From: Candidatus Iainarchaeum sp.
GTDB taxonomy: Archaea; Iainarchaeota; Iainarchaeia; Iainarchaeales; Iainarchaeaceae
Reading direction: 5' to 3'
DNA: 24,551 bases
Assembly: GCA_038895675.1 (NCBI GenBank)
Contig: JAWANB010000006.1
Location: 1-24,551 of the forward strand
The notes under the pieces are model-generated. The model ran no database searches. It was not told where the DNA came from and worked only from the letters and a program-made list of their open reading frames with translations. Both the position numbers and the translations under genes were made by a program. The first letter of the stretch is position 1, and each line of letters begins with the position of its first letter. Below are positions 1 to 12,879 of the stretch, one piece after another.

Positions 1-624
1 GCCTGCCCATGCGTCTTCATGAATAGTTAGTTCATTTTCTGTTATTTCCATTACTTTTGTTATCCAATTAAAATATTCTTCAAAGTAAAGTTCTGTGTTA
101 TAGTCTTTAGCTTTTTCGAAATGTAATTGCCCTAACATGTCAAAGCAAACATAGTGAGAGCCTGTTATGCCAACGTTATCTATGTCGTTGAATCTTAGTG
201 ATAGTTGTGGTATTATTACTGCATTACTTTTTGGTTTTATTTCGCCTTTTACTACAAAAGGTTGGAATGGGTATATTGAGGCACCTACCCAGTAAACGTC
301 TGGACGCCATCTTGCAACTACTGGGTATCTTTTGTATTCGTAGTAACCTAATTTTGTAAAATAATTTTTGAATTCTGTCCAAGTGCTTAAGTAATCAAAC
401 TTTTTTTTTGTAGGCGGGTCACCTATAAAAGAATAGCCTCCACAACAAGTAGCGTCTCCGCATATTTTTCTTTCATTGTCTTGTGTCCAATAATATCTTC
501 CGCAATTTTCGCATTTTTTTCTGGTAAATCCTTTTTCTTGCAGTTTTTTTGTCGGGTAATTTTTGGTTGGTTCTTTTGAAGCTTGTTCTTTGTATATTGC
601 TTTTATTTCTTTGTCTGTAAGCAT
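1..624 (-). CDS. alaS: Alanyl-tRNA synthetase, archaeal type (N-terminal part; runs off the left edge; absent from the ORF track)
   Basis: My translation from ATG at 624: MLTDKEIK...GFTRKKCENCGRYYWT...ICGDATCC...RYPVVARWRPDVYWVGASIYPFQPFV...PQLSLRFNDIDNVGITGSHYVCFDMLG...ELTIHEDAWAG. This matches archaeal AlaRS motifs (RYPV.RWR.D, ASI.FQP, RF.DIDNVG.TG.H). Confidence 0.95.
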   Translation of the reverse strand, partial: MLTDKEIKAIYKEQASKEPTKNYPTKKLQEKGFTRKKCENCGRYYWTQDNERKICGDATCCGGYSFIGDPPTKKKFDYLSTWTEFKNYFTKLGYYEYKRYPVVARWRPDVYWVGASIYPFQPFVVKGEIKPKSNAVIIPQLSLRFNDIDNVGITGSHYVCFDMLGQLHFEKAKDYNTELYFEEYFNWITKVMEITENELTIHEDAWAG

Positions 625-1292: not shown

Positions 1293-4127
1293 TTATTCTA
1301 TTACTATCGCTGGTTTTTTTGGCATGGCTTTTTGGGCTTTTTCTTTGTATTGTGTTTGTTCTGCTTTTTCAAAGAAAACTTTGCAATTAAATTCTTTTTC
1401 AAAAAATTCTGTGTTTTCTTTTATTAGTTCTTCTTCGTTTATTTCTGTTTCGTCGTAAGTTTTGGCAATTTTCAAAGCTTGTTTTGCGAATTGTTCTGTT
1501 TCTTTTCCTTTTTGTCTTATTTCTTGGTCTTGCATAAGGGCTTTCATTATTAACCCAAAATCAATTTTGTTTTCGCAAGCTTTTTTTGCTATTGTCATTG
1601 CTTTGTGTTTCCATTTTGGTGCTATGATTATAGTGATTTTTTTTGGTTGGCTTATTTTTGTTAGCTCTATTATTTGTTTTATGTCTTCTATAGTTGTTTT
1701 TATTATTTCTTCTGTTTGTTTTATTTCTTTTGATATTTTTGTTTTGTCGTAGCTTGGCCATTTTGCTGTACTAATCATTTCTTTTTGTTCTAATAATTGC
1801 CATGCTTCTTCTGCTACAAAAGGTGTTATTGGGGCTAACATTAGTATTTGTGTTTTTAAGGTTTCTTCTATGGTGCTTTTGTTTGGTTTGTTTCCTGTTC
1901 TGTACAAGTACCATTTTATTGCTCTTTGCATTTCAAAGAATGCTAACCTTAGTGCGCTTTTGAACATTGCTTCTTCCATGTAGTTTGTTGTTTGCATTAC
2001 AATTTCGTTGGTTTGTGATTCTAACCAATAATCTATCTTGCTTTTTTTTCTTTCTGTGCTTTTTTCTTTTATTGTTTTGATTTGGTTTAGGAGTTCTTGC
2101 AGTTTTTGGTTCATTGTTTCTGCTAATGCTATTTCAAAGTTTGCGTCATCTAAGCCTTCTCCTCCTGAGAGTACTGCAAATCTTGAAGCATCGCAACCAA
2201 ATTTTTCTGGGAGTTCTCTTAGCAATATAAAGTTTCCTTTTGATTTTGACATTTTTTCTCCGTTTATTGTTATCCAACCATTTACTCCTATGCCTTTTGG
2301 GTGCTTATTTTTGTCTTCCCAAATTGCAACGTGGTTGAATATGTAGAAAGTTAAGTGGTTTTGTATTAGGTCTTTGCCAGAGTTTCTAAAGTCAACTGGA
2401 TACCAATAATTGAATTCTTTTCTTAGTTCTTCGCAAATTTCTTTTTCTACTTTTATGTTTTTGCTTTCTTTTCCTAAAAACACGTAATCGAAAAATTCGT
2501 TGTTTATTTTTTCTTCTGGAATTTCTTTTATTTTGTGTGCTATAGTGTAATAAGCCATGTATATTGTTGAGTCGCTTAGGCTTTCTATTACCCATTTTTC
2601 ATCCCATGGTAATTTTGTTCCTAAACCGAATTCTCTTGTGCATGGCCAGTCGTTAAGCCAATCTATTACATAGTTGAATTGTTGTCTTGCTTCTTCTGGG
2701 TATAATTTTATTTTAGAGAGTGCTTCGTGGCTTTTTTGTTTCCATTCTTTGTTTTTGTAGTTTATGAACCATTGATCTGTAACTATTTTTACTGTGGCTT
2801 CTTGTAAGCACCTGCATACGACTTTTCCTGTGAGTTCGTAGAATATTGTTGCTTCTTTGTTTTGTATTAGTTCTTCTTTCACGAGTTCTTTTGCTTTTAT
2901 TACTGGCATTCCTGAGTATTTCCTCGTATTTTTTCCCATAATGCCTTCGTAGTATCCTTTTTTGTAAACTATTTTTTTTGCTTCTTCTAATTTTTGTCTT
3001 TCTTCTGGGCTTTTTATGTTCATTTCTTTTACCATTTTTTCTGCTGCCATTTCTCCCAATTCTGCCGAGTTAATTATTGGTATTGGTTTTATTTTGCAAA
3101 TTTCTTCGTAGTTTAAACCGTATTTTTCACATGTTTCTTTTGAATTTTGCAAGTAAAGTAAGCCTATGTAGTCGTCCGGTGCGTCGCTTGGCACGCTTGT
3201 CACTATTCCTGTTCCTTTCGTAGGGTCGCAGAATGTAGCTGGAAGTACTATTATTGTCTTGTGTATTTCTGGTGCTATTACTTTTTTTCCTATTAGTTCT
3301 TTTCCTTTTAATTTTCCTATCGTAGTTACTTCGTGGTTTTGTTGTTTTAGTTTTGCGAAAAATTCTTGGCTTCCTATCCATTTTTCTTTATCTACTTCTG
3401 CTATAATATATTCTATTTCTGGGTTTACCCATAGATTTGTTTGGCCAAAGACTGTTTCTGGTCTTAGTGTTGCTGCTATAATGTATTTGTCTTCAAACTT
3501 GAATTTTAGTAAGGTGAATTCTTGTGGTGTTTCTCCTTCTCCTTCTATTCTTGAGTGGTCTGGCACTGGGGCGTTGTCTTTTGTGCACCAAACCACAGGA
3601 TGGCTTCCTTTTATTACATAGTTTTTTTCTTTTAGTTTTGTGAATTGCCATTTTATGAATTTGTCGTAATGCGGGTTTAATGATGTTGTTATGAAGCTTC
3701 TTCGCCAATCTATGCTTAACCCTAAAGACTTTAGGTCTTTTTCTGCTTCTTTTGGAAAGTATTCTACCCATTTTTTTGGTTCTTGAAATTCTTTTATTTG
3801 TTCTTCTTTCAGCCCTAATTGTTTCATTATTTCTATTTGCTTTGGTTCATTTTCTTTGATTCTTTGCGCAGCACTTTCTATTGGACTGCCGGTGCAATGC
3901 CAACCTTGTGGAAATAGGACATTATAGCCTCTCATTCTTTTATACCTTGCCATGGCTTCTACTCTCATTAGAGTATAAAAGTGCCCTATGTGCATTAGTG
4001 AGTTCATGTAGGGATAAGGAAATGTTACAAAGAACTTTGGTTTTTCGTTAGGGTTTGCTTCAAAAGTTTTTTCATTTTCCCATTTTTTTATCCATTTTTG
4101 TTCTATTTCTTTGAAATTGTTAGGCAT
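1293..4127 (-). CDS. leuS: Leucyl-tRNA synthetase (archaeal type)
   Basis: FPYPYMN..MHIGH, KMSKS, ATLRPET, GTGIVTSVPSDAPDD editing domain, WVIESLSDSTIYMAYYT, SGKDLIQNHL. Confidence 0.98.
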   Translation of the reverse strand: MPNNFKEIEQKWIKKWENEKTFEANPNEKPKFFVTFPYPYMNSLMHIGHFYTLMRVEAMARYKRMRGYNVLFPQGWHCTGSPIESAAQRIKENEPKQIEIMKQLGLKEEQIKEFQEPKKWVEYFPKEAEKDLKSLGLSIDWRRSFITTSLNPHYDKFIKWQFTKLKEKNYVIKGSHPVVWCTKDNAPVPDHSRIEGEGETPQEFTLLKFKFEDKYIIAATLRPETVFGQTNLWVNPEIEYIIAEVDKEKWIGSQEFFAKLKQQNHEVTTIGKLKGKELIGKKVIAPEIHKTIIVLPATFCDPTKGTGIVTSVPSDAPDDYIGLLYLQNSKETCEKYGLNYEEICKIKPIPIINSAELGEMAAEKMVKEMNIKSPEERQKLEEAKKIVYKKGYYEGIMGKNTRKYSGMPVIKAKELVKEELIQNKEATIFYELTGKVVCRCLQEATVKIVTDQWFINYKNKEWKQKSHEALSKIKLYPEEARQQFNYVIDWLNDWPCTREFGLGTKLPWDEKWVIESLSDSTIYMAYYTIAHKIKEIPEEKINNEFFDYVFLGKESKNIKVEKEICEELRKEFNYWYPVDFRNSGKDLIQNHLTFYIFNHVAIWEDKNKHPKGIGVNGWITINGEKMSKSKGNFILLRELPEKFGCDASRFAVLSGGEGLDDANFEIALAETMNQKLQELLNQIKTIKEKSTERKKSKIDYWLESQTNEIVMQTTNYMEEAMFKSALRLAFFEMQRAIKWYLYRTGNKPNKSTIEETLKTQILMLAPITPFVAEEAWQLLEQKEMISTAKWPSYDKTKISKEIKQTEEIIKTTIEDIKQIIELTKISQPKKITIIIAPKWKHKAMTIAKKACENKIDFGLIMKALMQDQEIRQKGKETEQFAKQALKIAKTYDETEINEEELIKENTEFFEKEFNCKVFFEKAEQTQYKEKAQKAMPKKPAIVIE

Positions 4128-4241
4128 GCCATCATTTCCATTTTTTGTTCTAAAAAACTTGTTTGGAAATAGTTTTAAATATTAAATAATTCTTTAATTG
4201 GTTTGTTAAATTGTTTTTTTATTGTTTTTTTTGGGTTTAAA

Positions 4242-6014
4242 ATGTTTGAAATTATTTTTTTGTTCGGGTTAATAGTTTTGCTTGGTTTTTTTAGTAGGTG
4301 GCTTTTTGAAAATACTAAAGTTCCAGAGCCATTGATTCTTCTTGTCTTTGGTTTTATTTTGGGGCCTTTAGGCTTGTTGAATTTTTTTTCTATTTCTAAT
4401 CTTGATTTGGTTCAGTTCAAGGAGGCTTTACCTGTAGTTGGTGCTATTGCTTTAGTATCTATTGTTTTTGAGGCTAGTTTGAGGCTTAAGGTCAAAGACT
4501 TTCCTAAGGATTTTTTTTATTCTTTATTGTTTTCTGTTTTAAATCTTGGTTTATGTGTTGTGCTTTTGACTGCTTTGGTTAGGTTTGTTTTTGGTTGGAG
4601 TCCAATTAATTCTTTTATTTTGGGTTCTATTTTAGGCGCTATTTCTTCTTATTCTTCTTATTCTATATTGCCATTTGTGAAAACCACTAATTCTTTGCGT
4701 TCTGCCTTGTACTTTGAAAGCACTTTGTCCACTATTTTTGTTTGTGTTTTAACTTTAGGTATTATGAAGTATAGTTCTTTGCCATTTTCTAATCAGAATT
4801 CTTTTGCTTCTATTTTATTTTCTTTGTTTTCTGTTTCTTTTATTTTTGGTTTATTTTTAAGTTTGTGTTTATTGTTTTTGCTTTTGCATTTTAACATTAA
4901 TCGTTTTGGTCGTTTGGTCTTGTTTTCTGTTGTGTTAATAATTTATTTTGTTGATTTCGTTATTTTCGGTGGTGTTGGTGTTATTTCTGTTGCTTTGATT
5001 GGTTTTGTTTTGGCTAATTCTGAGTTATTTTTAAAGTTGTTGGGAAAACCTAATTTTTCTTTTGACAATTCTTTAACTTCTTTTCAATCAGAGATTTCTA
5101 TTTTTGTTAATACCTTTTTCTTTGTTTATTTGGGCATGATTTTTGATTTGTCTCAAATTTCTACTTTGGCTATATTTTTTGTAATCTCGATAGTTTTAGT
5201 AATGCTTTTTTCAAGGTTTTTAGTAGCTTTTGTTTTGAAAAATTTTGTTAAATCACAAAAACACGAAGATTTTTTGCGTGTTGTTTTTATTCCTCGTGAT
5301 TTGTTAAGTGCAGTATTGGCTTCTTTCGTGTTTATTTATTCTCCTTCTAGTAGTTTCATTATTGACACAATTATTTTGGCTATTGTTTTTTCTACAATTT
5401 TTACTTCCGTTGCTTTGTTCTATTATGAGAAAATTTTTAAGGATTCTTTCCTTTTTAAGAAAGAAATTCAGTTGGTTGATGGTAGAAAAGTTTTGATTAG
5501 GACTTTTACTAAGGATGACGTTGGCAAGCTAAAAAATTTTTTGAACAAATTGGTTGAAGAAGGTGCCTACATTGCCATTGATCAGAGGCTTGATACTGAA
5601 GACGAACGTGAAATGGTTAATGACATGATTTTAAGGATGAATCGTAAAGAATTAATTGTTTGGGTAGGAGTTCATGATAATAGAATTATCGCCAAGGTTT
5701 CTGCTGAAAAAATGTCAGGTAGAGAAAGAGACAACGTTTCTTTAAGTTTTTATGTGGATAAAGATTTCAGAGGAGTTGGCCTTGGCACTATTTTGATAAG
5801 ACTTATTGTTAACGAAGCCTTAAAGACTTTTGATCCTCACAATCTCTACTTGACAGTTTACTCTGATAATACTAAAGCCATTAAACTTTATGAGCGAGAA
5901 GGATTTGTCAAGTGCGGTGTTTTGCCAGGTTGGGTAAAACACAATAACAAATACCTAAACAGAGTTTACATGGTTTATAAGCCAAAAAAAGAAAAAGCAT
6001 TAGAAAATAGTTAG
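4242..6014 (+). CDS. NhaP/CPA1-like cation:proton antiporter domain fused to a C-terminal GNAT acetyltransferase
   Basis: About 12 hydrophobic helices with KVPEPLILLVFGFILGP, FFFVYLG and PRDLLSAVLA; the C-terminal ~180 aa carry GNAT motifs VDKDFRGVGLGT and VYSDNTKAIKLYEREGF. Start placed at the first ATG (4242). Confidence 0.85.
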   Translation: MFEIIFLFGLIVLLGFFSRWLFENTKVPEPLILLVFGFILGPLGLLNFFSISNLDLVQFKEALPVVGAIALVSIVFEASLRLKVKDFPKDFFYSLLFSVLNLGLCVVLLTALVRFVFGWSPINSFILGSILGAISSYSSYSILPFVKTTNSLRSALYFESTLSTIFVCVLTLGIMKYSSLPFSNQNSFASILFSLFSVSFIFGLFLSLCLLFLLLHFNINRFGRLVLFSVVLIIYFVDFVIFGGVGVISVALIGFVLANSELFLKLLGKPNFSFDNSLTSFQSEISIFVNTFFFVYLGMIFDLSQISTLAIFFVISIVLVMLFSRFLVAFVLKNFVKSQKHEDFLRVVFIPRDLLSAVLASFVFIYSPSSSFIIDTIILAIVFSTIFTSVALFYYEKIFKDSFLFKKEIQLVDGRKVLIRTFTKDDVGKLKNFLNKLVEEGAYIAIDQRLDTEDEREMVNDMILRMNRKELIVWVGVHDNRIIAKVSAEKMSGRERDNVSLSFYVDKDFRGVGLGTILIRLIVNEALKTFDPHNLYLTVYSDNTKAIKLYEREGFVKCGVLPGWVKHNNKYLNRVYMVYKPKKEKALENS

Positions 6015-6103
6015 AAAATTGAATAAAAAAGTAATATGTAAAAATTGGTCTTTGCAAAATATTTTAAGTAATTCATAAAAAGGCGTTGCCAATTATTATT
6101 TGT

Positions 6104-7780
6104 ATGAGTCGCTTTATTGAAAAAGAACTTAAATCTTTGTTAGAAAAAGTAGTTTCTAATAATCCTAAAGCCAAAACCTCGGTTTTGGAAGAAGCCTACT
6201 TTTTTTCTAAGATTGCTCACAAAGACCAAAAACGTTTGTCAGGAGAACCATATTTTTCTCATCCTTTAGCAGTCGCAAATTCCCTAGCAGACTTTGGTTT
6301 TGACGAAATAGTTGTTTCTTCTGCTTTGTTGCACGACGTTGTAGAAGACTCCAATATTAGTTTAGCAGAATTAAGACGCCTTTTCGGCAAAGACATAGCA
6401 AATTTAGTTAGCGCTTTGACCAAATTGGATTTAGTAGCTTTCAGGTCAAGGAAAGAACACACCGCCGCTAACGTTGTTAAAACAATAATAGCTTCTTCCA
6501 AAGACTTGCGAGTCCTTATAATAAAGCTTTTTGATAAACTTCACAACCTTGAAACACTCTCTTACTTAGACAAAGAAAGAAGAATCAGAATAGCATCAGA
6601 CGCCCTCTTAGTATACGTCCCTATAACTCAACGCCTTGGCTTGAATTTTTTAAAAAGAAAAATGGAAGACTTGTGCTATGCTAACCTTGAACCACGAGAT
6701 TTTAAAAAATTCAAAAAATCGTTGATGCCTTTCAGCAGAGCCAAAGACAAAGAAATATCAAAAATAATTAAAACCCTAAAAAAACAAAGATTTACTAAAG
6801 ATTGGTCGTTTTTGACTTTCTGTAAGTCGTTTTATTCATTGAGAATGAAAATGCGAGTTCGTGGAAAAAAAATCGAAGAATTGAACGACATAAAAGTTTT
6901 GAAGATTATTGTCCCATCAAAAAAAGATTGTTACTTTGCATTAGGTGCAGTCCATGAAATATTCAAGCCAATACCTAAAAAATTCAAAGACTATATTGCA
7001 ACTCCATCATATCTTTACCAGGCTTTGCACACCCAAGTAATAAGTCCAAAAAACAAGCCTGTAAAAATTTACATTCAATCCAAAGAAATGTTTGAATTAG
7101 GCGAATACGGAATAATCTATTTATTCAAATCAAAAAGCAAAAGAATCCAAGAATTCAAAAAAATATTTTATCTCAACAGAAACGTAAAATACAACGACAG
7201 CAAAGAATTGATTAGCGATCTAAAACTCGACTTTTTAAACAAGTCTATTGTAGTATTCACAGCTAATGGGGAAATGATAAAACTACCAAGCGATTCAACA
7301 GTAATTGACTTTGCTTATCTTACAGACCCAACAGTTGCAGATAAGTCAATTAAAGCCGAAGTTAACGGAAGAATAGTCCCACTTTGGACAAAACTATTTG
7401 ACGGAGACAGAGTAAAAGTAATACACGCAAAAAAACCAACAATACAAATAAGTTGGCTTTGCTTTGCAACCTCCGAAAAAGTAAAAAAAGACATAGAAAG
7501 CACACTAAAAAACAGCATAATACCATTAGAAATTTCAGGACACGTAAAATTCAGAATTGACTCAATCGACAAACCAGGCTTAGTAGGAAAACAAGCAAAA
7601 ATTCTTGCTGACAACGGATTCAACATAGAATCAGGAATAACAAAAGTAAACGAAGACAGAAAAACAGGTTATTCAGAATTCATAGTAAAAAACCTAAAAG
7701 GCTCTAATTTACAAAAAGCAATAGAACAACTAAAAAAAATGAAAGAAACAATAAAACTCAACGTAGACTATTTTAAATAA
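6104..7780 (+). CDS. Long RelA/SpoT homologue (HD hydrolase - degenerate synthetase - TGS - ACT)
   Basis: HKDQKRLSGEPYFSHP, ALLHDVVED, IKLFDKLHN; DCYFALGAVH, KFKDYIA, YQALHT; TGS VFTANG..IDFAY..VNGRIVPL; ACT DKPGLV..NGFNI. ATG at 6104. Confidence 0.92.
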   Translation: MSRFIEKELKSLLEKVVSNNPKAKTSVLEEAYFFSKIAHKDQKRLSGEPYFSHPLAVANSLADFGFDEIVVSSALLHDVVEDSNISLAELRRLFGKDIANLVSALTKLDLVAFRSRKEHTAANVVKTIIASSKDLRVLIIKLFDKLHNLETLSYLDKERRIRIASDALLVYVPITQRLGLNFLKRKMEDLCYANLEPRDFKKFKKSLMPFSRAKDKEISKIIKTLKKQRFTKDWSFLTFCKSFYSLRMKMRVRGKKIEELNDIKVLKIIVPSKKDCYFALGAVHEIFKPIPKKFKDYIATPSYLYQALHTQVISPKNKPVKIYIQSKEMFELGEYGIIYLFKSKSKRIQEFKKIFYLNRNVKYNDSKELISDLKLDFLNKSIVVFTANGEMIKLPSDSTVIDFAYLTDPTVADKSIKAEVNGRIVPLWTKLFDGDRVKVIHAKKPTIQISWLCFATSEKVKKDIESTLKNSIIPLEISGHVKFRIDSIDKPGLVGKQAKILADNGFNIESGITKVNEDRKTGYSEFIVKNLKGSNLQKAIEQLKKMKETIKLNVDYFK

Positions 7781-7821
7781 AGTTCAACATTTTTAATCAG
7801 TTTAGTAAAACAATATTTGAA

Positions 7822-8066
7822 GGGCCCGTAGCTCAGTTTGGATAGAGCACCTGCCTTCTAACCCTTTTCTTTTCGTTGGCACGAAAAGAAAAGCGTTAAT
7901 GGAAAAGAAAAGTGCAAGTTTTCTTTTTTCCATTGAAAGAAGAGCGTTAACGAAAAAGAAAGATGACCATTTCTTTCTTTTTGCTAGGAAGCGTTAATGA
8001 AAGTTTCTTTTTCATAAGAGAAGGGAAGTAAGCAGGGGGTCGAGGGTTCAAATCCCTCCGGGTCCG
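7822..8066 (+). tRNA. tRNA-Arg(TCT) with a 170-nt intron at position 37/38 (exons 7822-7860 and 8031-8066)
   Basis: GGGCCCG-TA-GCTC-AGTTTGGATA-GAGC-A-CCTGC-CT-TCT-A / A-GCAGG-GGGTC-GAGGG-TTCAAAT-CCCTC-CGGGTCC-G. BHB: CTTC 7855-7858 pairs GAAG 8025-8028, with TAA bulges at 7859-7861 and 8029-8031. No encoded CCA. Confidence 0.93.
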
Positions 8067-8205
8067 CATTAACCCTTTTCTTTCCTTTCACCAAGGAAAG
8101 AAAAGCGTTAACGGAAAAGAAAGGTGGTGTTTTTTTTTCTTTTTTTTTATTGATGGGTTTTTTTATCAAGGAAAGGTTGTGTTTTTTTTCTTTTTTTTAT
8201 TAATG
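7861..8205 (+). repeat. Array of purine/pyrimidine hairpins punctuated by AGCGTTAA, inside and downstream of tRNA-Arg
   Basis: AGCGTTAA at 7892, 7943, 7990 and 8104; perfect 13-bp stems 7864-7876/7881-7893 and 8075-8087/8093-8105; direct repeat GAAAGGTKGTG(T)nC(T)nATTRATG at ~8119-8155 and ~8171-8205. Confidence 0.85.
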
Positions 8206-8313
8206 AAGTTTAGTGTTATTTGTGAAGAAAGGTGATTATTTTTATTTTACCATGTAAAAAGAAAAATTGCTGAGAAAGGCAGATTATTAAATAAAATTGT
8301 TTTAGAGATTTTT

Positions 8314-10011
8314 ATGTTCGAAGAAGCTAAAGTTGTTTTGGCAAAGGCGCTTTCAAAAACCAATTCAAGAACTGATTTTTTTAGTTTGCTTGAATGCCCT
8401 TACGACAGGTCTTTCGGAGACTTTGCTTTGCCTTGCTTTAAGCTTTCTCATGAAAAAAACCCTAATCAAACAGCTTTAGAATTGAAAGATAAATTGGTTT
8501 TGCCTAAAATTTTTAGGTCTTGTGAAGTCAAGGGACCTTACTTAAATTTTTTTTTCAACGAATTAGAAGTAGTTAAAAAAATTGTTCCAGCCATAATTTC
8601 CCAGAAAAGTGCTTATGGCAAGGCAAAAAGAAAAAGAGAAAGAATTATTGTAGAGTATTGCCAAGCAAATCCTATGAAAGCTTTTCATATTGGCCATACT
8701 CGTAATATTTGTTTGGGTGAAGCAATAGCAAAAATCTTCGAATACTTTGGCGAAAATGTTTTTAGAGTAAATTATTGTGGTGACGTTGGGCCTCACGTGA
8801 GCAAATCAATTTACGCTTATCGTTATCTTTCTCAAGAGCCAGAGCCTTTTTCTCTGGCAGAAAAAGAAAAGTGGCTAAACAAGTTGTATGCTTTGGGTGA
8901 AAAGGCTGTTTCGGAAGATAAAGCATTGCAAGAAAAGATGCGTGAAATGGTTGTTTTGCTTGAAAAAGGCGATAAAGATTTGAAAAAAGATTGGCTCTAC
9001 TTGCGTTCTATTAGCTTTGATTGTTTCAATAGAATTTTTGAACAGCTTGGAACAAGGTTTGACAAAATCATTTGCGAAAGCGAAGTTGAGAAAGAAGGAA
9101 TAAAAATTGCTTTAGACCTTGAAAAGCAAGGCTTTGCAAAAAGAGATCAAGGCGCAATTATTGTGGATTTAGAGTCTTATGGTTTAGGCAAGTTTTTGAT
9201 TTTAAAGAGTGATGGCGCTGCCCTGTATTCTACAAAAGACATAGCTCTCGCCAAGCTTAAAAAAACAGAGTTAAACGCAATTAAGTCTTACAACATAGTA
9301 GGTTCAGAACAATCTTTTTACTTTAAGCAGTTGATCAAAACTATAGAGCTTCTCAACCAAATTAAGAAAGATTATTGTGAAACCATTCATTTGCCTTACG
9401 AGTTAGTAAACGTTGAAGGAGCCAAAATGTCTTCTAGATTAGGCAACGTCATAACTTATACTGACTTGTTTGAAACGATTTTTAACAAAACTTTGGAAGA
9501 AACAAAAGCAAGGCATTCTGATTGGCCTAACGAAAAAGTTTTTAATGTTGCTGAAAAAATAGCTTTGGCTGCTTTAAAGTATGGAATGCTTTCACAAGAT
9601 AGAAACAAAACTTTGGTTTTCAATTGGGAAAAAGCTATAAAAATGGAAGGAGAAACAGGGCCTTTCATATTGTATAGTTATGCAAGAGCTTCAAGTATTT
9701 TGCGAAAAAAAAGTTTTGATTCTTTGCCAAAAAAATTTGTGCTTGAAACAAAAGCGGAAAAAGACTTGGTTGTTTTGTTGGCAAAACTTGATTTTGTTGT
9801 AAAACAAGCTTATGATTATAAAGCGCCTAACAAGTTAGCTCAGTATTTGATTGACTTGAGCAAGTCTTTCAATGCTTTTTATAGAGATTCTCCTGTTTTG
9901 TCTTGTGAAGGTGACCAATTGAAAACTAGGCTTTCTTTGGTTTATGCTACCACATTAATGCTTGAATTAGGTTGTAGTTTGCTAAACATTTCTTTGGTTG
10001 AAGAAATGTAA
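8314..10011 (+). CDS. argS: Arginyl-tRNA synthetase
   Basis: FGDFALPCF, VEYCQANPMKAFHIGHTRN, KSDGAALYSTKDIA, KMSSRLG, GETGPFILYSYAR. Confidence 0.97.
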   Translation: MFEEAKVVLAKALSKTNSRTDFFSLLECPYDRSFGDFALPCFKLSHEKNPNQTALELKDKLVLPKIFRSCEVKGPYLNFFFNELEVVKKIVPAIISQKSAYGKAKRKRERIIVEYCQANPMKAFHIGHTRNICLGEAIAKIFEYFGENVFRVNYCGDVGPHVSKSIYAYRYLSQEPEPFSLAEKEKWLNKLYALGEKAVSEDKALQEKMREMVVLLEKGDKDLKKDWLYLRSISFDCFNRIFEQLGTRFDKIICESEVEKEGIKIALDLEKQGFAKRDQGAIIVDLESYGLGKFLILKSDGAALYSTKDIALAKLKKTELNAIKSYNIVGSEQSFYFKQLIKTIELLNQIKKDYCETIHLPYELVNVEGAKMSSRLGNVITYTDLFETIFNKTLEETKARHSDWPNEKVFNVAEKIALAALKYGMLSQDRNKTLVFNWEKAIKMEGETGPFILYSYARASSILRKKSFDSLPKKFVLETKAEKDLVVLLAKLDFVVKQAYDYKAPNKLAQYLIDLSKSFNAFYRDSPVLSCEGDQLKTRLSLVYATTLMLELGCSLLNISLVEEM

Positions 10012-10039: not shown

Positions 10040-10870
10040 TCATTTTAAAAAAATGTGTCTGCTAGTAGGCAACCTTCTAAGTCTCCATAGGTTTCTTCCT
10101 GTATGTAAAGCCTCTAAATCAGCGAGTAGTTGAAGCCTATGTTCTGCTGAAAATTTTGAAAAAACACGTTCTACAGGTTTTCTTTTAAACGGAAAACTAA
10201 ATTGAAAAAATTTTGGCACTTCTTTTCTTAAAGGATATAAAAATTTCAAAGAGTCAGTCGTGAATAGTCTTGGAACTTCAAATTCACGTATTTTTTTTCT
10301 TGTTTTCAGAGAAAGGTAAGCAGGGCATCTTTGTTTTCTTGCATCGGCAATCGCTACTATGCTCAAAACAATATTGTCTAAATTTCTTTCTTTAATAATA
10401 CTTTCAAGAAGTTTTATACCTTGAACTAAGGCGCCGCCACTATAAACTTCATCTATAAATATGATTTTGATTTTTTTCTTACGTTTGTTTTTTGAATTAG
10501 CCAATGTAAGTATTTTGTCAATAATTCTATTCATTTCTCTTTTTTGTTCTTTTTCTGGAATAGAAGTTTGGTATGATGATACTACTCTATTTACCTTTTT
10601 AGAAGGAACATTACTATTTATTTGTCCTGTTTTCGGGTAATAAATGCGGGGCATTAAGCTTGAATTTTTGTTAAGGCTTGCAAATAAGTTTATGGTTTTT
10701 ATGAGAATTTCAGAACCTCTTAAAGGAGAAATAATTGCATCAGCTTGCTGTGAAATAATATAAATATATGCTGAATAAAGCTCCTTGTAATATCCTTGTA
10801 GTTCTTCAATAGTGTAACCTTCTTTTTGAAACTTTCTATATTCTTTTTTGTTGACTCTCATCGATTCCAT
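10040..10870 (-). CDS. Type I phosphoribosyltransferase-like protein
   Basis: PRPP-binding-loop-like IIFIDEVYSGGAL and N-terminal DAIISPLRGSEIL; otherwise divergent. Confidence 0.55.
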   Translation of the reverse strand: MESMRVNKKEYRKFQKEGYTIEELQGYYKELYSAYIYIISQQADAIISPLRGSEILIKTINLFASLNKNSSLMPRIYYPKTGQINSNVPSKKVNRVVSSYQTSIPEKEQKREMNRIIDKILTLANSKNKRKKKIKIIFIDEVYSGGALVQGIKLLESIIKERNLDNIVLSIVAIADARKQRCPAYLSLKTRKKIREFEVPRLFTTDSLKFLYPLRKEVPKFFQFSFPFKRKPVERVFSKFSAEHRLQLLADLEALHTGRNLWRLRRLPTSRHIFLK

Positions 10871-10881
10871 ATTTGTATCTT

Positions 10882-12879
10882 TTAAAAATCTTTTTTAATG
10901 GCTTTGTTTATGACTATTAAAAGTGTTATTATGCTTATCAAGTAAGATATTATTTCGTAGTTGGTTTTTTCATAACTCAATTCTACTTCTCCTTTTGCAA
11001 AAAACATCATGAAGTTTGGTGCTGCTCTGTAAATATTTATTTCTTTTCCTTCTTGTTTTGCTTTCCAATTTGGGAAATAAGAAATTTTTGCAAGCACTGG
11101 AACTTCTTTTTCAGATTCAATAAATATTTTGTACTTGTCACCTCTTTTGTTTTCTTCTATTATAGTTATTTTTGTTTCAGTGTTTTCTTGCTTTGTTTGT
11201 TGCAATTCTTTCGGCAAATTTTGGATTGGTAATGTATTTATTATTTCTTCTGATAAAAACCAATTGACTGTTTTGTTTTTCCATTCTTGCGTGTCAACTT
11301 TTATTAGTTCTTTTGTTGGAACTTCAAAAATCTTAGAGTCTGAAACCTTGTATAATGAGTATTCTACTTCTTTAGGCCCTTCAGTGTATTCGTTGTTTAC
11401 TTCTGTTTTTAAGACGTCTTTTGTTTTTTTCCAACTTTCTGCATGTTGTTCTGCTGAAATTATGTAATTTATGCCTAAGGCTTCTAATTGCCATGGCATT
11501 AGTTTCATTAGTTTTTCTTTGTTATCAATGACAAATTGTTTGTCTACGCTTACTCCCCAGTCAAAGTTAGTTTCGTCTAATTCTTTTTCAAGGTAGAACA
11601 CAAAGACAGAATTTCTTGACGATTCGCTGTAAATTCCTCTTACTGCTACATTGTTGCATTGCATTGGTATTGCATGTTGTATTTCGTGTGGAGTTTGTGC
11701 AGTTGTTGGTGGTGCGTTTATTAGCGTTCTTGTATTTTCTGGCGGACAATTTTGTTTTATGGTTTCTAAATCGTATCTTGTTAATTTTGAGTATCCTTCT
11801 GGAGAATAGTATTGCACGTTGAAGATTACTATTAGAAAATAGATTGTTGTTGCAAATGCTATTGCTTTATGATCTAATTTTATTATGCTGAAAAAAATTG
11901 GCGGCAATAGTAAGAGTATTATTATTGTGAACCTGTAGAAGTGTGTTGGTATGTCAATTATGCTAGTGCCTATTATTGAAAATACTAAAATAAGAGCGAT
12001 TGTTGTTATTGTTGGGTAAATTGCTTTATTTTTTTGTGATATTGCTATTGCTAAAACTACTAAAAAAAGGCCTAATAACATTGTTGCATCTTCTATGCTT
12101 CCTATTCTTGCTATTTCTGCTTCTTCTCTTGTTATTATTGCAGGGATCCACCAAAAAGCGGTTATTAGAGCGCCAATTATGAATTGTTTTATTGTTGGTT
12201 CTATTTTTTCTTTTTCTTTTATTGAGTAGATTATTAAGTGCGAGATTGTTGCTATTATGCCTATGATTGCTGTGAGTGGGTGGGTTATTATTAGTAAGCC
12301 TAAAAGCAACGCTTGTTTTATGTAGTTTTCTTTTTGGATTTTTGCTAATTCTCCCAAGTAAAAGAATAGTATTGGTAATGCTACAGCATTAGCTATTAAT
12401 CCTGTGCCTAATGTTGAGTAAAGGTCTCCGCCGTAGCTTTTTGGTGGGGCTATTATTAGTAGTGATGTCATGATGAGTGTTGAGGCTAATGCAGAATTTT
12501 GTTTTAGGCCTATCGACTTACTGAAATGGTAAAATGCTATTGGTGTTAGTATTATGAAAATGCTTAGTGCTATTTTGAATGCAATGTCTATGGGTATTAT
12601 TTGTGCTATGGTTGCTACTAAGTATGGGAAAAACGGGCCATAAAAATAGTTTTGCGGATAACCAAAGAAGAAGAATTTGTTCCAGCCTGTTATTTCAGGG
12701 TATAAATAGTTTTTTGTGTGCCATGCTGAAAAGTACATTCCTGTCATGTCGTAATTTAAGAGGTTATTGTGTTGTATGAATGGTATTATTGCCCAAAAAA
12801 ACAGGTAAAAGTAAATGGCTGAAAAGACCATTATTTTTACAAAATTGTCTTTTTTTTCTTCTGTTTTTTTTTGCTTCAT
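10882..12879 (-). CDS. Polytopic membrane protein, GT-C-like (6-pyruvoyl-tetrahydropterin synthase-related/YfhO-like)
   Basis: DMTGMY..GWNKFFFFGYPQNYFYGP, ITHPLT, ITAFWWIP, C-terminal KISYFPNWKA..IYRAAPNFM; ATGA overlap with the upstream gene. Confidence 0.75.
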   Translation of the reverse strand: MKQKKTEEKKDNFVKIMVFSAIYFYLFFWAIIPFIQHNNLLNYDMTGMYFSAWHTKNYLYPEITGWNKFFFFGYPQNYFYGPFFPYLVATIAQIIPIDIAFKIALSIFIILTPIAFYHFSKSIGLKQNSALASTLIMTSLLIIAPPKSYGGDLYSTLGTGLIANAVALPILFFYLGELAKIQKENYIKQALLLGLLIITHPLTAIIGIIATISHLIIYSIKEKEKIEPTIKQFIIGALITAFWWIPAIITREEAEIARIGSIEDATMLLGLFLVVLAIAISQKNKAIYPTITTIALILVFSIIGTSIIDIPTHFYRFTIIILLLLPPIFFSIIKLDHKAIAFATTIYFLIVIFNVQYYSPEGYSKLTRYDLETIKQNCPPENTRTLINAPPTTAQTPHEIQHAIPMQCNNVAVRGIYSESSRNSVFVFYLEKELDETNFDWGVSVDKQFVIDNKEKLMKLMPWQLEALGINYIISAEQHAESWKKTKDVLKTEVNNEYTEGPKEVEYSLYKVSDSKIFEVPTKELIKVDTQEWKNKTVNWFLSEEIINTLPIQNLPKELQQTKQENTETKITIIEENKRGDKYKIFIESEKEVPVLAKISYFPNWKAKQEGKEINIYRAAPNFMMFFAKGEVELSYEKTNYEIISYLISIITLLIVINKAIKKDF

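Follow-up and report, generated by a model that had tools for sequence, protein, structure and literature searches.

Signaling by the alarmones guanosine penta- and tetraphosphate, (p)ppGpp, is a hallmark of bacteria and plastids. Jimmy et al. distinguish 13 subfamilies of long RelA/SpoT homologs (RSHs). In Rel and RelA, the histidine of the TGS domain, the helical domain, and the zinc finger are the parts that sense tRNA and the ribosome. Complete subfunctionalization of long RSHs was described by Atkinson et al. (2011; PMC3153485) and tested by Tamman et al. (PMC9974481). In the latter paper, Acinetobacter baumannii SpoT is described as a hydrolase-only enzyme that has lost the TGS histidine and is insensitive to the ribosome; the residues critical for synthesis are lost as well, the protein being synthetase-inactive in vivo and showing no GDP binding, and the hydrolase is activated by the C-terminal domains, its activity being lost when these are cut away (PMC9974481). 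Archaea appear among the organisms that Atkinson et al. listed as having no long RSHs (PMC3153485). Li et al. (2021, mSystems; PMC8407392) have since reported RelA/SpoT genes from 69% of Diapherotrites as well as from further DPANN phyla, and they predict a bacterial origin for these genes. The passage of Li et al. that reports this concerns the same family and the same phylum as our study, and in that passage there is no mention of two paralogs, of dead domains, or of gene context. Here we analyze a 24,551-nucleotide stretch of DNA from Candidatus Iainarchaeum sp. (GCA_038895675.1, contig JAWANB010000006.1; hereafter the window) and the long RSH gene that it carries at positions 6104..7780 of the forward strand. 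The gene was singled out in an earlier reading of the sequence (the original prediction), which regarded long RSHs as essentially bacterial or plastid proteins; in view of the figure of 69% of Diapherotrites (PMC8407392), that part of it is out of date for DPANN.

The window gene encodes a protein of 558 residues that consists of an HD domain, a pseudo-synthetase (pseudo-SYNTH) domain, a TGS domain, a short helix, and an ACT domain. We refer to this protein as Hs and to a second long RSH of the same genome as hS, according to the nomenclature of Atkinson et al. From the pattern of retained and lost residues in the two proteins, we consider it likely that Hs is the hydrolase half of a two-gene, fully subfunctionalized long-RSH system in Iainarchaeales, in which hS is the synthetase. 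The open reading frame of Hs starts at ATG 6104, which lies flush with the starts of 28 orthologs, and the sole in-frame alternative is TTG 6086. The HD (hydrolase) domain occupies positions 6197..6643 (residues 32–180; Pfam HD_4, 109 bits), the pseudo-synthetase domain 6824..7117 (residues 241–338; Pfam RelA_SpoT, 72 bits), the TGS domain 7247..7423 (residues 382–440; Pfam TGS, 46 bits), and a C-terminal ACT/RRM-type domain 7541..7774 (residues 480–557), all on the forward strand. The last of these has the order beta-alpha-beta-beta-alpha-beta in the secondary structure of an AlphaFold 2 model, and its Pfam ACT match (residues 485–546) scores 27.4 bits against a cut-off of 27.

Hs has HD_4 and RelA_SpoT in one chain, both above the Pfam cut-offs, as the N-terminal half of a long RSH does, and it has the C-terminal TGS and ACT domains of such a protein. 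It shares the HD fold and, by prediction, the hydrolase-only character of small alarmone hydrolases (SAHs; Mesh1, RelH, and Pseudomonas aeruginosa SAH); these are single-domain proteins of about 180–200 residues, whereas Hs, with four domains in 558 residues, retains the pseudo-synthetase, TGS, and ACT domains. The spacer between the end of TGS (about residue 441) and the start of ACT (about residue 480) comprises about 40 residues with one cysteine, and a Pfam search of Hs gave no match to RelA_AH_RIS (PF19296), indicating that the helical and zinc-finger domains are absent.

We determined the state of individual residues from an alignment of Hs to Bacillus subtilis Rel (6YXA) and a mycobacterial Rel; the residue numbering of Hs presumably almost coincides with that of RelSeq. 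The hydrolase motifs RLSGEPY, SHP, HDVVED, and DKLHN are retained in comparison with the solved Rel, and R44, H53, H77, D78, E81, D82, D144, and N148 are intact. In the synthetase domain, GRPK has become TFCK (residues 238–241, positions 6815–6826) and plEvqiRt has become pvKiyiQs, in which the catalytic glutamate (equivalent to E323) is replaced by K321 (positions 7064–7066). The glutamine and arginine of ExQxR are lost, and so is HWxYK (aaHWaYK has become iiYLFKSK); the residues that the pseudo-synthetase domain retains include D262, K293, D296, Y305, and H309. In the TGS domain, DFsYriH reads DFAYLTD, and the histidine that contacts the CCA end is D408 (positions 7325–7327). The original prediction had named the hydrolase motifs as retained, the synthetase as dead through the Glu-to-Lys and GRxK-to-TFCK changes, the TGS histidine as replaced by aspartate, the Cys-rich zinc finger as missing, and the ACT domain as kept. 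All of these statements are borne out by the alignment, the Pfam matches, and the ACT fold of the model.

A whole-genome search with PF04607 gave exactly two matches, the window gene and an open reading frame of 615 residues outside the window, on contig C27 of the same genome (G000; L001:676-2523, reverse strand). The latter encodes hS, a synthetase-only long RSH by its motifs. The HD motifs of hS have degenerated, with HN in place of HD and without D144 and N148; the synthetase motifs GRIKS, EVQIRT, and HWKYK are intact, and the TGS domain reads DFAYAIH, with the histidine retained. PF19296 is matched, a zinc finger (CCKP...H..C) aligns to that of Escherichia coli RelA, and an ACT domain then follows; among solved structures, the best match is E. 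coli RelA bound to the ribosome. The gene is flanked by that for Pus10, an archaeal/eukaryotic tRNA pseudouridine synthase. The SpoT[Hs] and RelA[hS] pair of the Moraxellaceae, as described in both papers (PMC3153485, PMC9974481), is similar in that the partner with the pseudo-HD domain is encoded in the same genome. No further match to RelA_SpoT or HD_4 was found in the genome (839 kb, 92% complete), and it therefore contains no small alarmone synthetase or hydrolase. The original prediction had suggested that the alarmone is made by another gene or by another organism, and had proposed a search for a small alarmone synthetase. The first suggestion holds, as hS is present on C27, and no foreign source is needed; the search yielded no small enzyme but, instead, a second, long RSH with an intact synthetase domain.

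We then compared Hs and hS across the order in a sample of 61 genomes, the window genome included. PF04607 is matched in 56 of them, in 55 above the cut-off. An Hs-type gene is present in 38 genomes (30 checked for motifs, 8 judged by score and identity only), and all 38 also carry hS; Hs alone was found in none of the 61. The HD motifs are recognizably retained in 30/30 Hs orthologs, with isolated substitutions in three (HL for HP in L047 and L067, and DKLNN in L058), and the eight hydrolase residues listed above, from R44 to N148, are invariant in all 28 orthologs that were realigned. The position of the catalytic glutamate is occupied by lysine in 30/30, the Gly-Arg of GRxK is lost in 30/30, and the TGS histidine is lost in 29/30. 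Given this recurrence, the substitution pattern of Hs is more than chance. The 30 hS proteins that were checked all have degenerate HD motifs and keep the catalytic glutamate, the next glutamine, and the TGS histidine. In an even draw of 201 genomes from the phylum, the Hs profile finds a match at E <= 1e-20 in 145, and a hand count gave two or more matches in 73; some families have no match, for example f30 (0/18). A few relatives of the window genome contain a third kind of open reading frame with a RelA_SpoT domain, which is absent from the window genome itself. These open frames of 365–395 residues, matched over profile positions 1–99 (G004:C32:18478-18819, G014:C36:17477-17821, G022:C7:36568-36912, and G026:C48:40140-40484), may encode a small alarmone synthetase or a related nucleotidyltransferase.

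The conservation of the individual domains was measured as mean pairwise identity over 22 genomes with both proteins in the alignment. For the HD domain it is 0.55 in Hs, in which the domain is of the active type, and 0.33 in hS, in which it is a pseudo-domain; for the synthetase domain it is 0.50 in Hs (pseudo) and 0.62 in hS (active). The dead synthetase domain of Hs is not decaying, and it is about as conserved as the active HD domain. In a 28-row alignment, K249, D262, K293, D296, and K321 of the pseudo-synthetase are invariant, and Y305 and H309 are near-invariant. The AlphaFold 2 model of Hs, which was built from a 28-sequence alignment, has a mean predicted local distance difference test (pLDDT) score of 86 and a predicted template modeling (pTM) score of 0.65, and the synthetase fold is preserved in it. 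Its best matches in the PDB are B. subtilis Rel, E. coli RelA, and A. baumannii SpoT, and its N-terminal half superimposes on S. aureus Rel-pppGpp (7OIW) with a target TM score of 0.92 and a root-mean-square deviation of 2.0–2.2 Å.

Two described groups are among those closest to Hs. Hs resembles A. baumannii SpoT (PDB 7QPR) in having an intact HD domain, a retained but dead synthetase domain, and no TGS histidine (S407 in SpoT, D408 in Hs) (PMC9974481). In contrast to what would be expected of orthologs, Hs scores 173 bits to 7QPR and 303 bits to B. subtilis Rel. It is without the helical and zinc-finger domains, which are reported to help form the active tau state of A. baumannii SpoT (PMC9974481), and it differs from Acinetobacter SpoT in its invariant lysine at the position of the catalytic glutamate, its archaeal host, and its linkage to argS. 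The bifunctional Rel[HS] of Firmicutes (6YXA, S. aureus 7OIW, and RelSeq 1VJ7) provides both the best sequence match (E 3e-89) and the best structure match, and has the same order of HD, SYNTH, and TGS domains; unlike these proteins, Hs has lost the synthetase residues, the TGS histidine, and the helical and zinc-finger domains, and it has 558 rather than about 730 residues.

The gene for arginyl-tRNA synthetase, argS (8314..10011, forward strand; TIGR00456, 398 bits), stands next to Hs, in the same orientation, in 29 of 30 genomes, which belong to at least 10 families. It lies directly upstream of Hs in 27/30, with gaps of 33–280 nt (median 67), and downstream of Hs in the window genome and its nearest relative. 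The Hs proteins of these 30 loci are 34–67% identical to the window protein. As a control, we examined the neighbors of hS, Pus10 and an MgtE-like gene, and found them kept in only 1 of 29 relatives. A tRNA-Arg(UCU) gene, which was read from the sequence, lies between Hs and argS in the window (7822..8067, forward strand) and has a 170-nt intron (7861–8030) at the canonical position 37/38. Its exons are 100% identical to those of the nearest relative over 39 + 36 aligned bases; the copy in that relative is called as tRNA-Arg(tct) and has a 30-nt intron. At seven other loci with long flanks, tRNA-Arg(tct) is found 22–890 nt upstream of argS (loci L033-L041 come from the same genomes as some of the G-numbered genomes and are not extra evidence). 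The Hs gene is kept beside argS and, where the flank suffices, beside tRNA-Arg(UCU). Judged from the gene order, Hs and argS are probably co-transcribed in most relatives.

The tRNA gene of the window escaped the standard searches: Rfam gave nothing over threshold in 5500–8800, a failure that is explained by the intron, and ARAGORN found no tRNA when run without the intron option. With introns allowed, ARAGORN returned a tRNA-Pyl(cta) parse, which is possible only with mismatches in the anticodon stem and with a long variable arm. We prefer Arg(UCU), because the intron at 37/38 gives five Watson-Crick pairs and because the orthologs are called as Arg(tct). The intron is made up of repeated A/T-rich hairpins, each of which ends in GCGTTAA (copies at 7891, 7942, and 7989), and the hairpin unit recurs just past the tRNA at 8069–8111; the length of the intron in this tRNA varies between 0 and 175 nt among relatives. 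In the acceptor stem there is a G3-U70 pair, which is odd for a tRNA-Arg, and the relatives have G3-U70, A3-U70, or G4-U69. G3-U70 is an identity element for alanine.

The arrangement of the two proteins suggests how such a system would operate. hS would synthesize (p)ppGpp, perhaps on sensing uncharged tRNA, and Hs would remove it by Mn2+-dependent 3'-pyrophosphohydrolysis in the intact HD site, thereby balancing hS. That Hs is a hydrolase only, as the original prediction proposed, is supported by HD residues that are intact and invariant in 28 orthologs and by the loss of the synthetase residues. The further proposal that Hs works independently of the ribosome is probably correct, because the TGS histidine, the helical domain, and the zinc finger are gone; the ribosome-insensitive A. 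baumannii SpoT offers a parallel (PMC9974481). By analogy with the same enzyme, for which such a mechanism was demonstrated, the dead synthetase domain, the TGS domain without its histidine, and the ACT domain of Hs may support the HD domain as a scaffold within the molecule, or activate it allosterically, instead of sensing the ribosome or tRNA.

Several observations weigh against the reading of Hs and hS as the two halves of one system. Among the 55 RSH-bearing genomes of the order, 17 have hS without an Hs-type gene or any other HD_4 match (G022, G024, G028, G031, G032, G035, G037, G038, G041, G042, G046, G047, G048, G055, G056, G058, and G060, with loci L013, L014, L018, and L077-L084); the 14 of these that were checked for motifs are all of the hS type, and two of the 17 are assemblies in 1–2 contigs that are 97–99% complete. 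An RSH hydrolase is thus not always needed beside hS, which weakens the logic of an obligate pair. A bacterial synthetase without a hydrolase is usually lethal. The NCBIfam model TIGR00691 spoT_relA, which covers residues 31–471 of Hs, gives a score of 423 bits, below the curated cut-off of 499. Some Hs orthologs have only about 480–500 residues, with a profile match that ends near position 478, and apparently lack the ACT domain; they occur in families f21, f24, and f28 (G049, G134, G149, G099, G100, G075, G184, and G197), and the loss was checked directly in G049 (L070, 478 residues) and judged from the length of the open frame in the others. Any control through ACT, as suggested in the original prediction, is therefore not general, and an architecture of HD, pseudo-SYNTH, and TGS without ACT would make the domain appear dispensable in these families. 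In the window genome, the spacer between Hs and argS is 533 nt long and contains the tRNA gene, so that co-transcription is uncertain here. Finally, (p)ppGpp had been detected in none of the archaea examined as of 2021 (PMC8646023). As side observations on the genomes with hS alone, G038 is a single contig that is 99% complete, and G048 contains fragments that resemble Hs.

The alternative that holds up best is that the HD domain of Hs is active on a substrate other than (p)ppGpp, such as (p)ppApp, pGpp, NADPH (as in Mesh1), or another 3'-pyrophosphorylated nucleotide, and that its link to hS is indirect. A (p)ppApp hydrolase (7SMG) is among the sequence matches, Mesh1-NADPH (5VXA) and Mesh1-PAPS (9CHY) are among the structure matches and have the same HD fold, and the 17 genomes with hS and without Hs also speak for it. 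We nevertheless regard it as improbable: long bifunctional Rel enzymes that act on (p)ppGpp give the best matches in both sequence and structure, the only synthetase-type RSH of the genome is Rel/RelA-like, with YxSLHT and ExQIRT motifs, and Hs is never found without hS (38/38).

We give still less credence to the idea that Hs is a pseudo-enzyme on both sides and serves as a non-catalytic sensor or regulator, for example as a nucleotide- or amino-acid-binding partner of arginyl-tRNA synthetase (ArgRS) or of hS. The metal-binding and catalytic residues of the hydrolase are invariant in 28/28 orthologs, a pattern that marks a functional active site, even though the retained pocket residues D262, K293, D296, Y305, and H309, the invariant lysine at the catalytic position, and the conserved argS linkage could be accommodated by such a role. 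It is very unlikely that Hs is still bifunctional or has weak synthetase activity. Hs does keep D262, which is at the position of a Mg2+ ligand, and a YQALHT motif, but the Glu-to-Lys change and the loss of the Gly-Arg of GRxK are found in 30/30 orthologs, neither the glutamine and arginine of ExQxR nor the HWxYK motif remains, and A. baumannii SpoT, in which critical residues for synthesis are likewise reported to be lost, is described as synthetase-inactive (PMC9974481).

The reading of Hs as the hydrolase partner of hS also presupposes that the gene belongs to its apparent host, which is an archaeon of the Iainarchaeales, DPANN. The window is contig C6 of a genome assembled in 43 contigs that holds a full-length archaeal 16S rRNA (RF01959, 1423 bits), and its named relatives belong to Candidatus Iainarchaeum and the DPANN phylum Iainarchaeota (formerly Diapherotrites). 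Besides the archaeal-type leuS and alaS, the window carries an archaetidylinositol-phosphate-synthase-like gene, and its G+C content is even (30–37%). Run X1 contains a 16,273-nt contig that matches 3500–7857 with one difference and joins leuS to Hs; as X1 may be the source sample, this contig is not independent support. A 632-nt contig of run X2 spans 7484–8115 with no difference. The contig is thus very probably neither bacterial nor chimeric, a danger of which the original prediction was aware: the genome has an archaeal 16S rRNA, and leuS and alaS on the contig are of the archaeal type.

To place Hs and hS, we built quick maximum likelihood trees of 76 and 40 rows under LG+C20 with posterior mean site frequencies (PMSF) and with support from the Shimodaira-Hasegawa-like approximate likelihood ratio test (SH-aLRT). 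The 76-row tree leaves out three truncated rows and every second row of family f1, and the bacterial rows in the trees are a small set of best hits without a Moraxellaceae SpoT, which was compared through PDB scores only. Both trees agree on an Hs clade (SH-aLRT 100) and an hS clade (96–98), and the sampled bacteria, which include E. coli RelA and SpoT, form one clade (99–100). Bifunctional Rel proteins of about 640 residues form two separate clades, one of which includes P0186, the only one of these proteins labeled as from a "Nanoarchaeota archaeon." Because the bacterial clade includes E. coli SpoT and Hs forms a separate one, archaeal Hs is not an ortholog of proteobacterial SpoT. By sequence and by analogy, we read the Hs/hS split as convergent with the SpoT/RelA split of Acinetobacter. 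Of the two checks that had been proposed for the family assignment, the phylogeny puts Hs in its own clade outside the sampled bacteria, and the family model leaves it below the spoT_relA cut-off. The nearest non-DPANN relatives of both proteins are bifunctional Rel of the Firmicutes type, with 37–39% identity for Hs and 39–44% for hS. The quick trees give no resolution to the branching among the Hs, hS, bacterial, and 640-residue clades, and Hs and hS may have arisen either by a single transfer with a later duplication within archaea or by two separate transfers. That the Hs gene is a piece of bacterial DNA placed in an archaeal genome by a binning or assembly error, a notion that the bacterial origin of the family and its 37–39% identical Firmicutes-type relatives might encourage, is contradicted by the archaeal-type leuS and alaS on the contig and the X1 contig that joins leuS to Hs (possibly from the source sample), the uniform G+C content, the argS-linked orthologs in 29 other genomes of the order, and the separate Hs clade, and we assign it next to no weight.

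Judged by the two sets of motifs, the alarmone cycle of Iainarchaeales seems to be complete and divided between two proteins. A wider scheme can be drawn around it, which we put forward tentatively and consider doubtful as a whole: a complete (p)ppGpp cycle in Iainarchaeales in which the hydrolase arm would be wired to the charging of arginyl-tRNA and the pocket of the pseudo-synthetase would serve as a sensor. In this scheme, the split into a sensor synthetase and a hydrolase would be independent of the proteobacterial RelA/SpoT split. tRNA-Arg(UCU), argS, and Hs would form a single operon, with the removal of the alarmone controlled by ArgRS, or by how far tRNA-Arg is charged, through the His-less TGS and the ACT domain; the invariant lysine beside the retained residues of the nucleotide pocket would make the domain an allosteric nucleotide sensor. 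If this scheme is true, it would be the first complete (p)ppGpp cycle in Archaea.

The occurrence of a synthetase-only and a hydrolase-only protein across an archaeal order makes the question of a stringent-type alarmone in archaea testable with two clonable genes. The pair would also provide a second, independent natural experiment in the complete subfunctionalization of a bifunctional enzyme, one in which the predicted hydrolase dispenses with two domains, the helical and the zinc-finger one, whose role in tuning activity was shown by the SpoT structure. The strongly conserved argS linkage points to a regulatory input that is unlike the ribosome-centered bacterial model. The presence of RelA/SpoT in DPANN has already been published. 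In searches of the open-access literature and bioRxiv, we found no account of such a split in archaea, of an architecture trimmed to HD/pseudo-SYNTH/TGS/ACT, of the invariant lysine, or of the argS linkage, and these features are apparently new.

The other genes of the neighborhood are rich in aminoacyl-tRNA synthetases. A fragment of an archaeal-type alaS lies at 1–624 (reverse strand), and an archaeal-type leuS lies at 1293..4127 (reverse strand; TIGR00395 leuS_arch, 1071 bits). A convergent leuS usually follows Hs. At the syntenic site after Hs in one relative (L034:7726-10428, reverse strand), leuS is of the bacterial type (TIGR00396, 943 bits) with a C-terminal part that matches archaeal LeuRS; the window genome and a few others have the archaeal type, and some relatives have the bacterial type, which looks like displacement in place or a hybrid. 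A 603-residue open reading frame directly upstream of Hs (4203–6014, forward strand) combines the membrane domain of a Na+/H+ exchanger with a GNAT acetyltransferase domain at the C terminus. At least this GNAT part is found at the same place in G001, the nearest relative, whose locus starts at a contig end. Downstream of argS are a 276-residue open reading frame with no family match (10040–10870, reverse strand) and a 665-residue membrane protein with a PTPS_related domain (10882–12879, reverse strand), the latter of which is 71% identical to its counterpart at the same place in the nearest relative.

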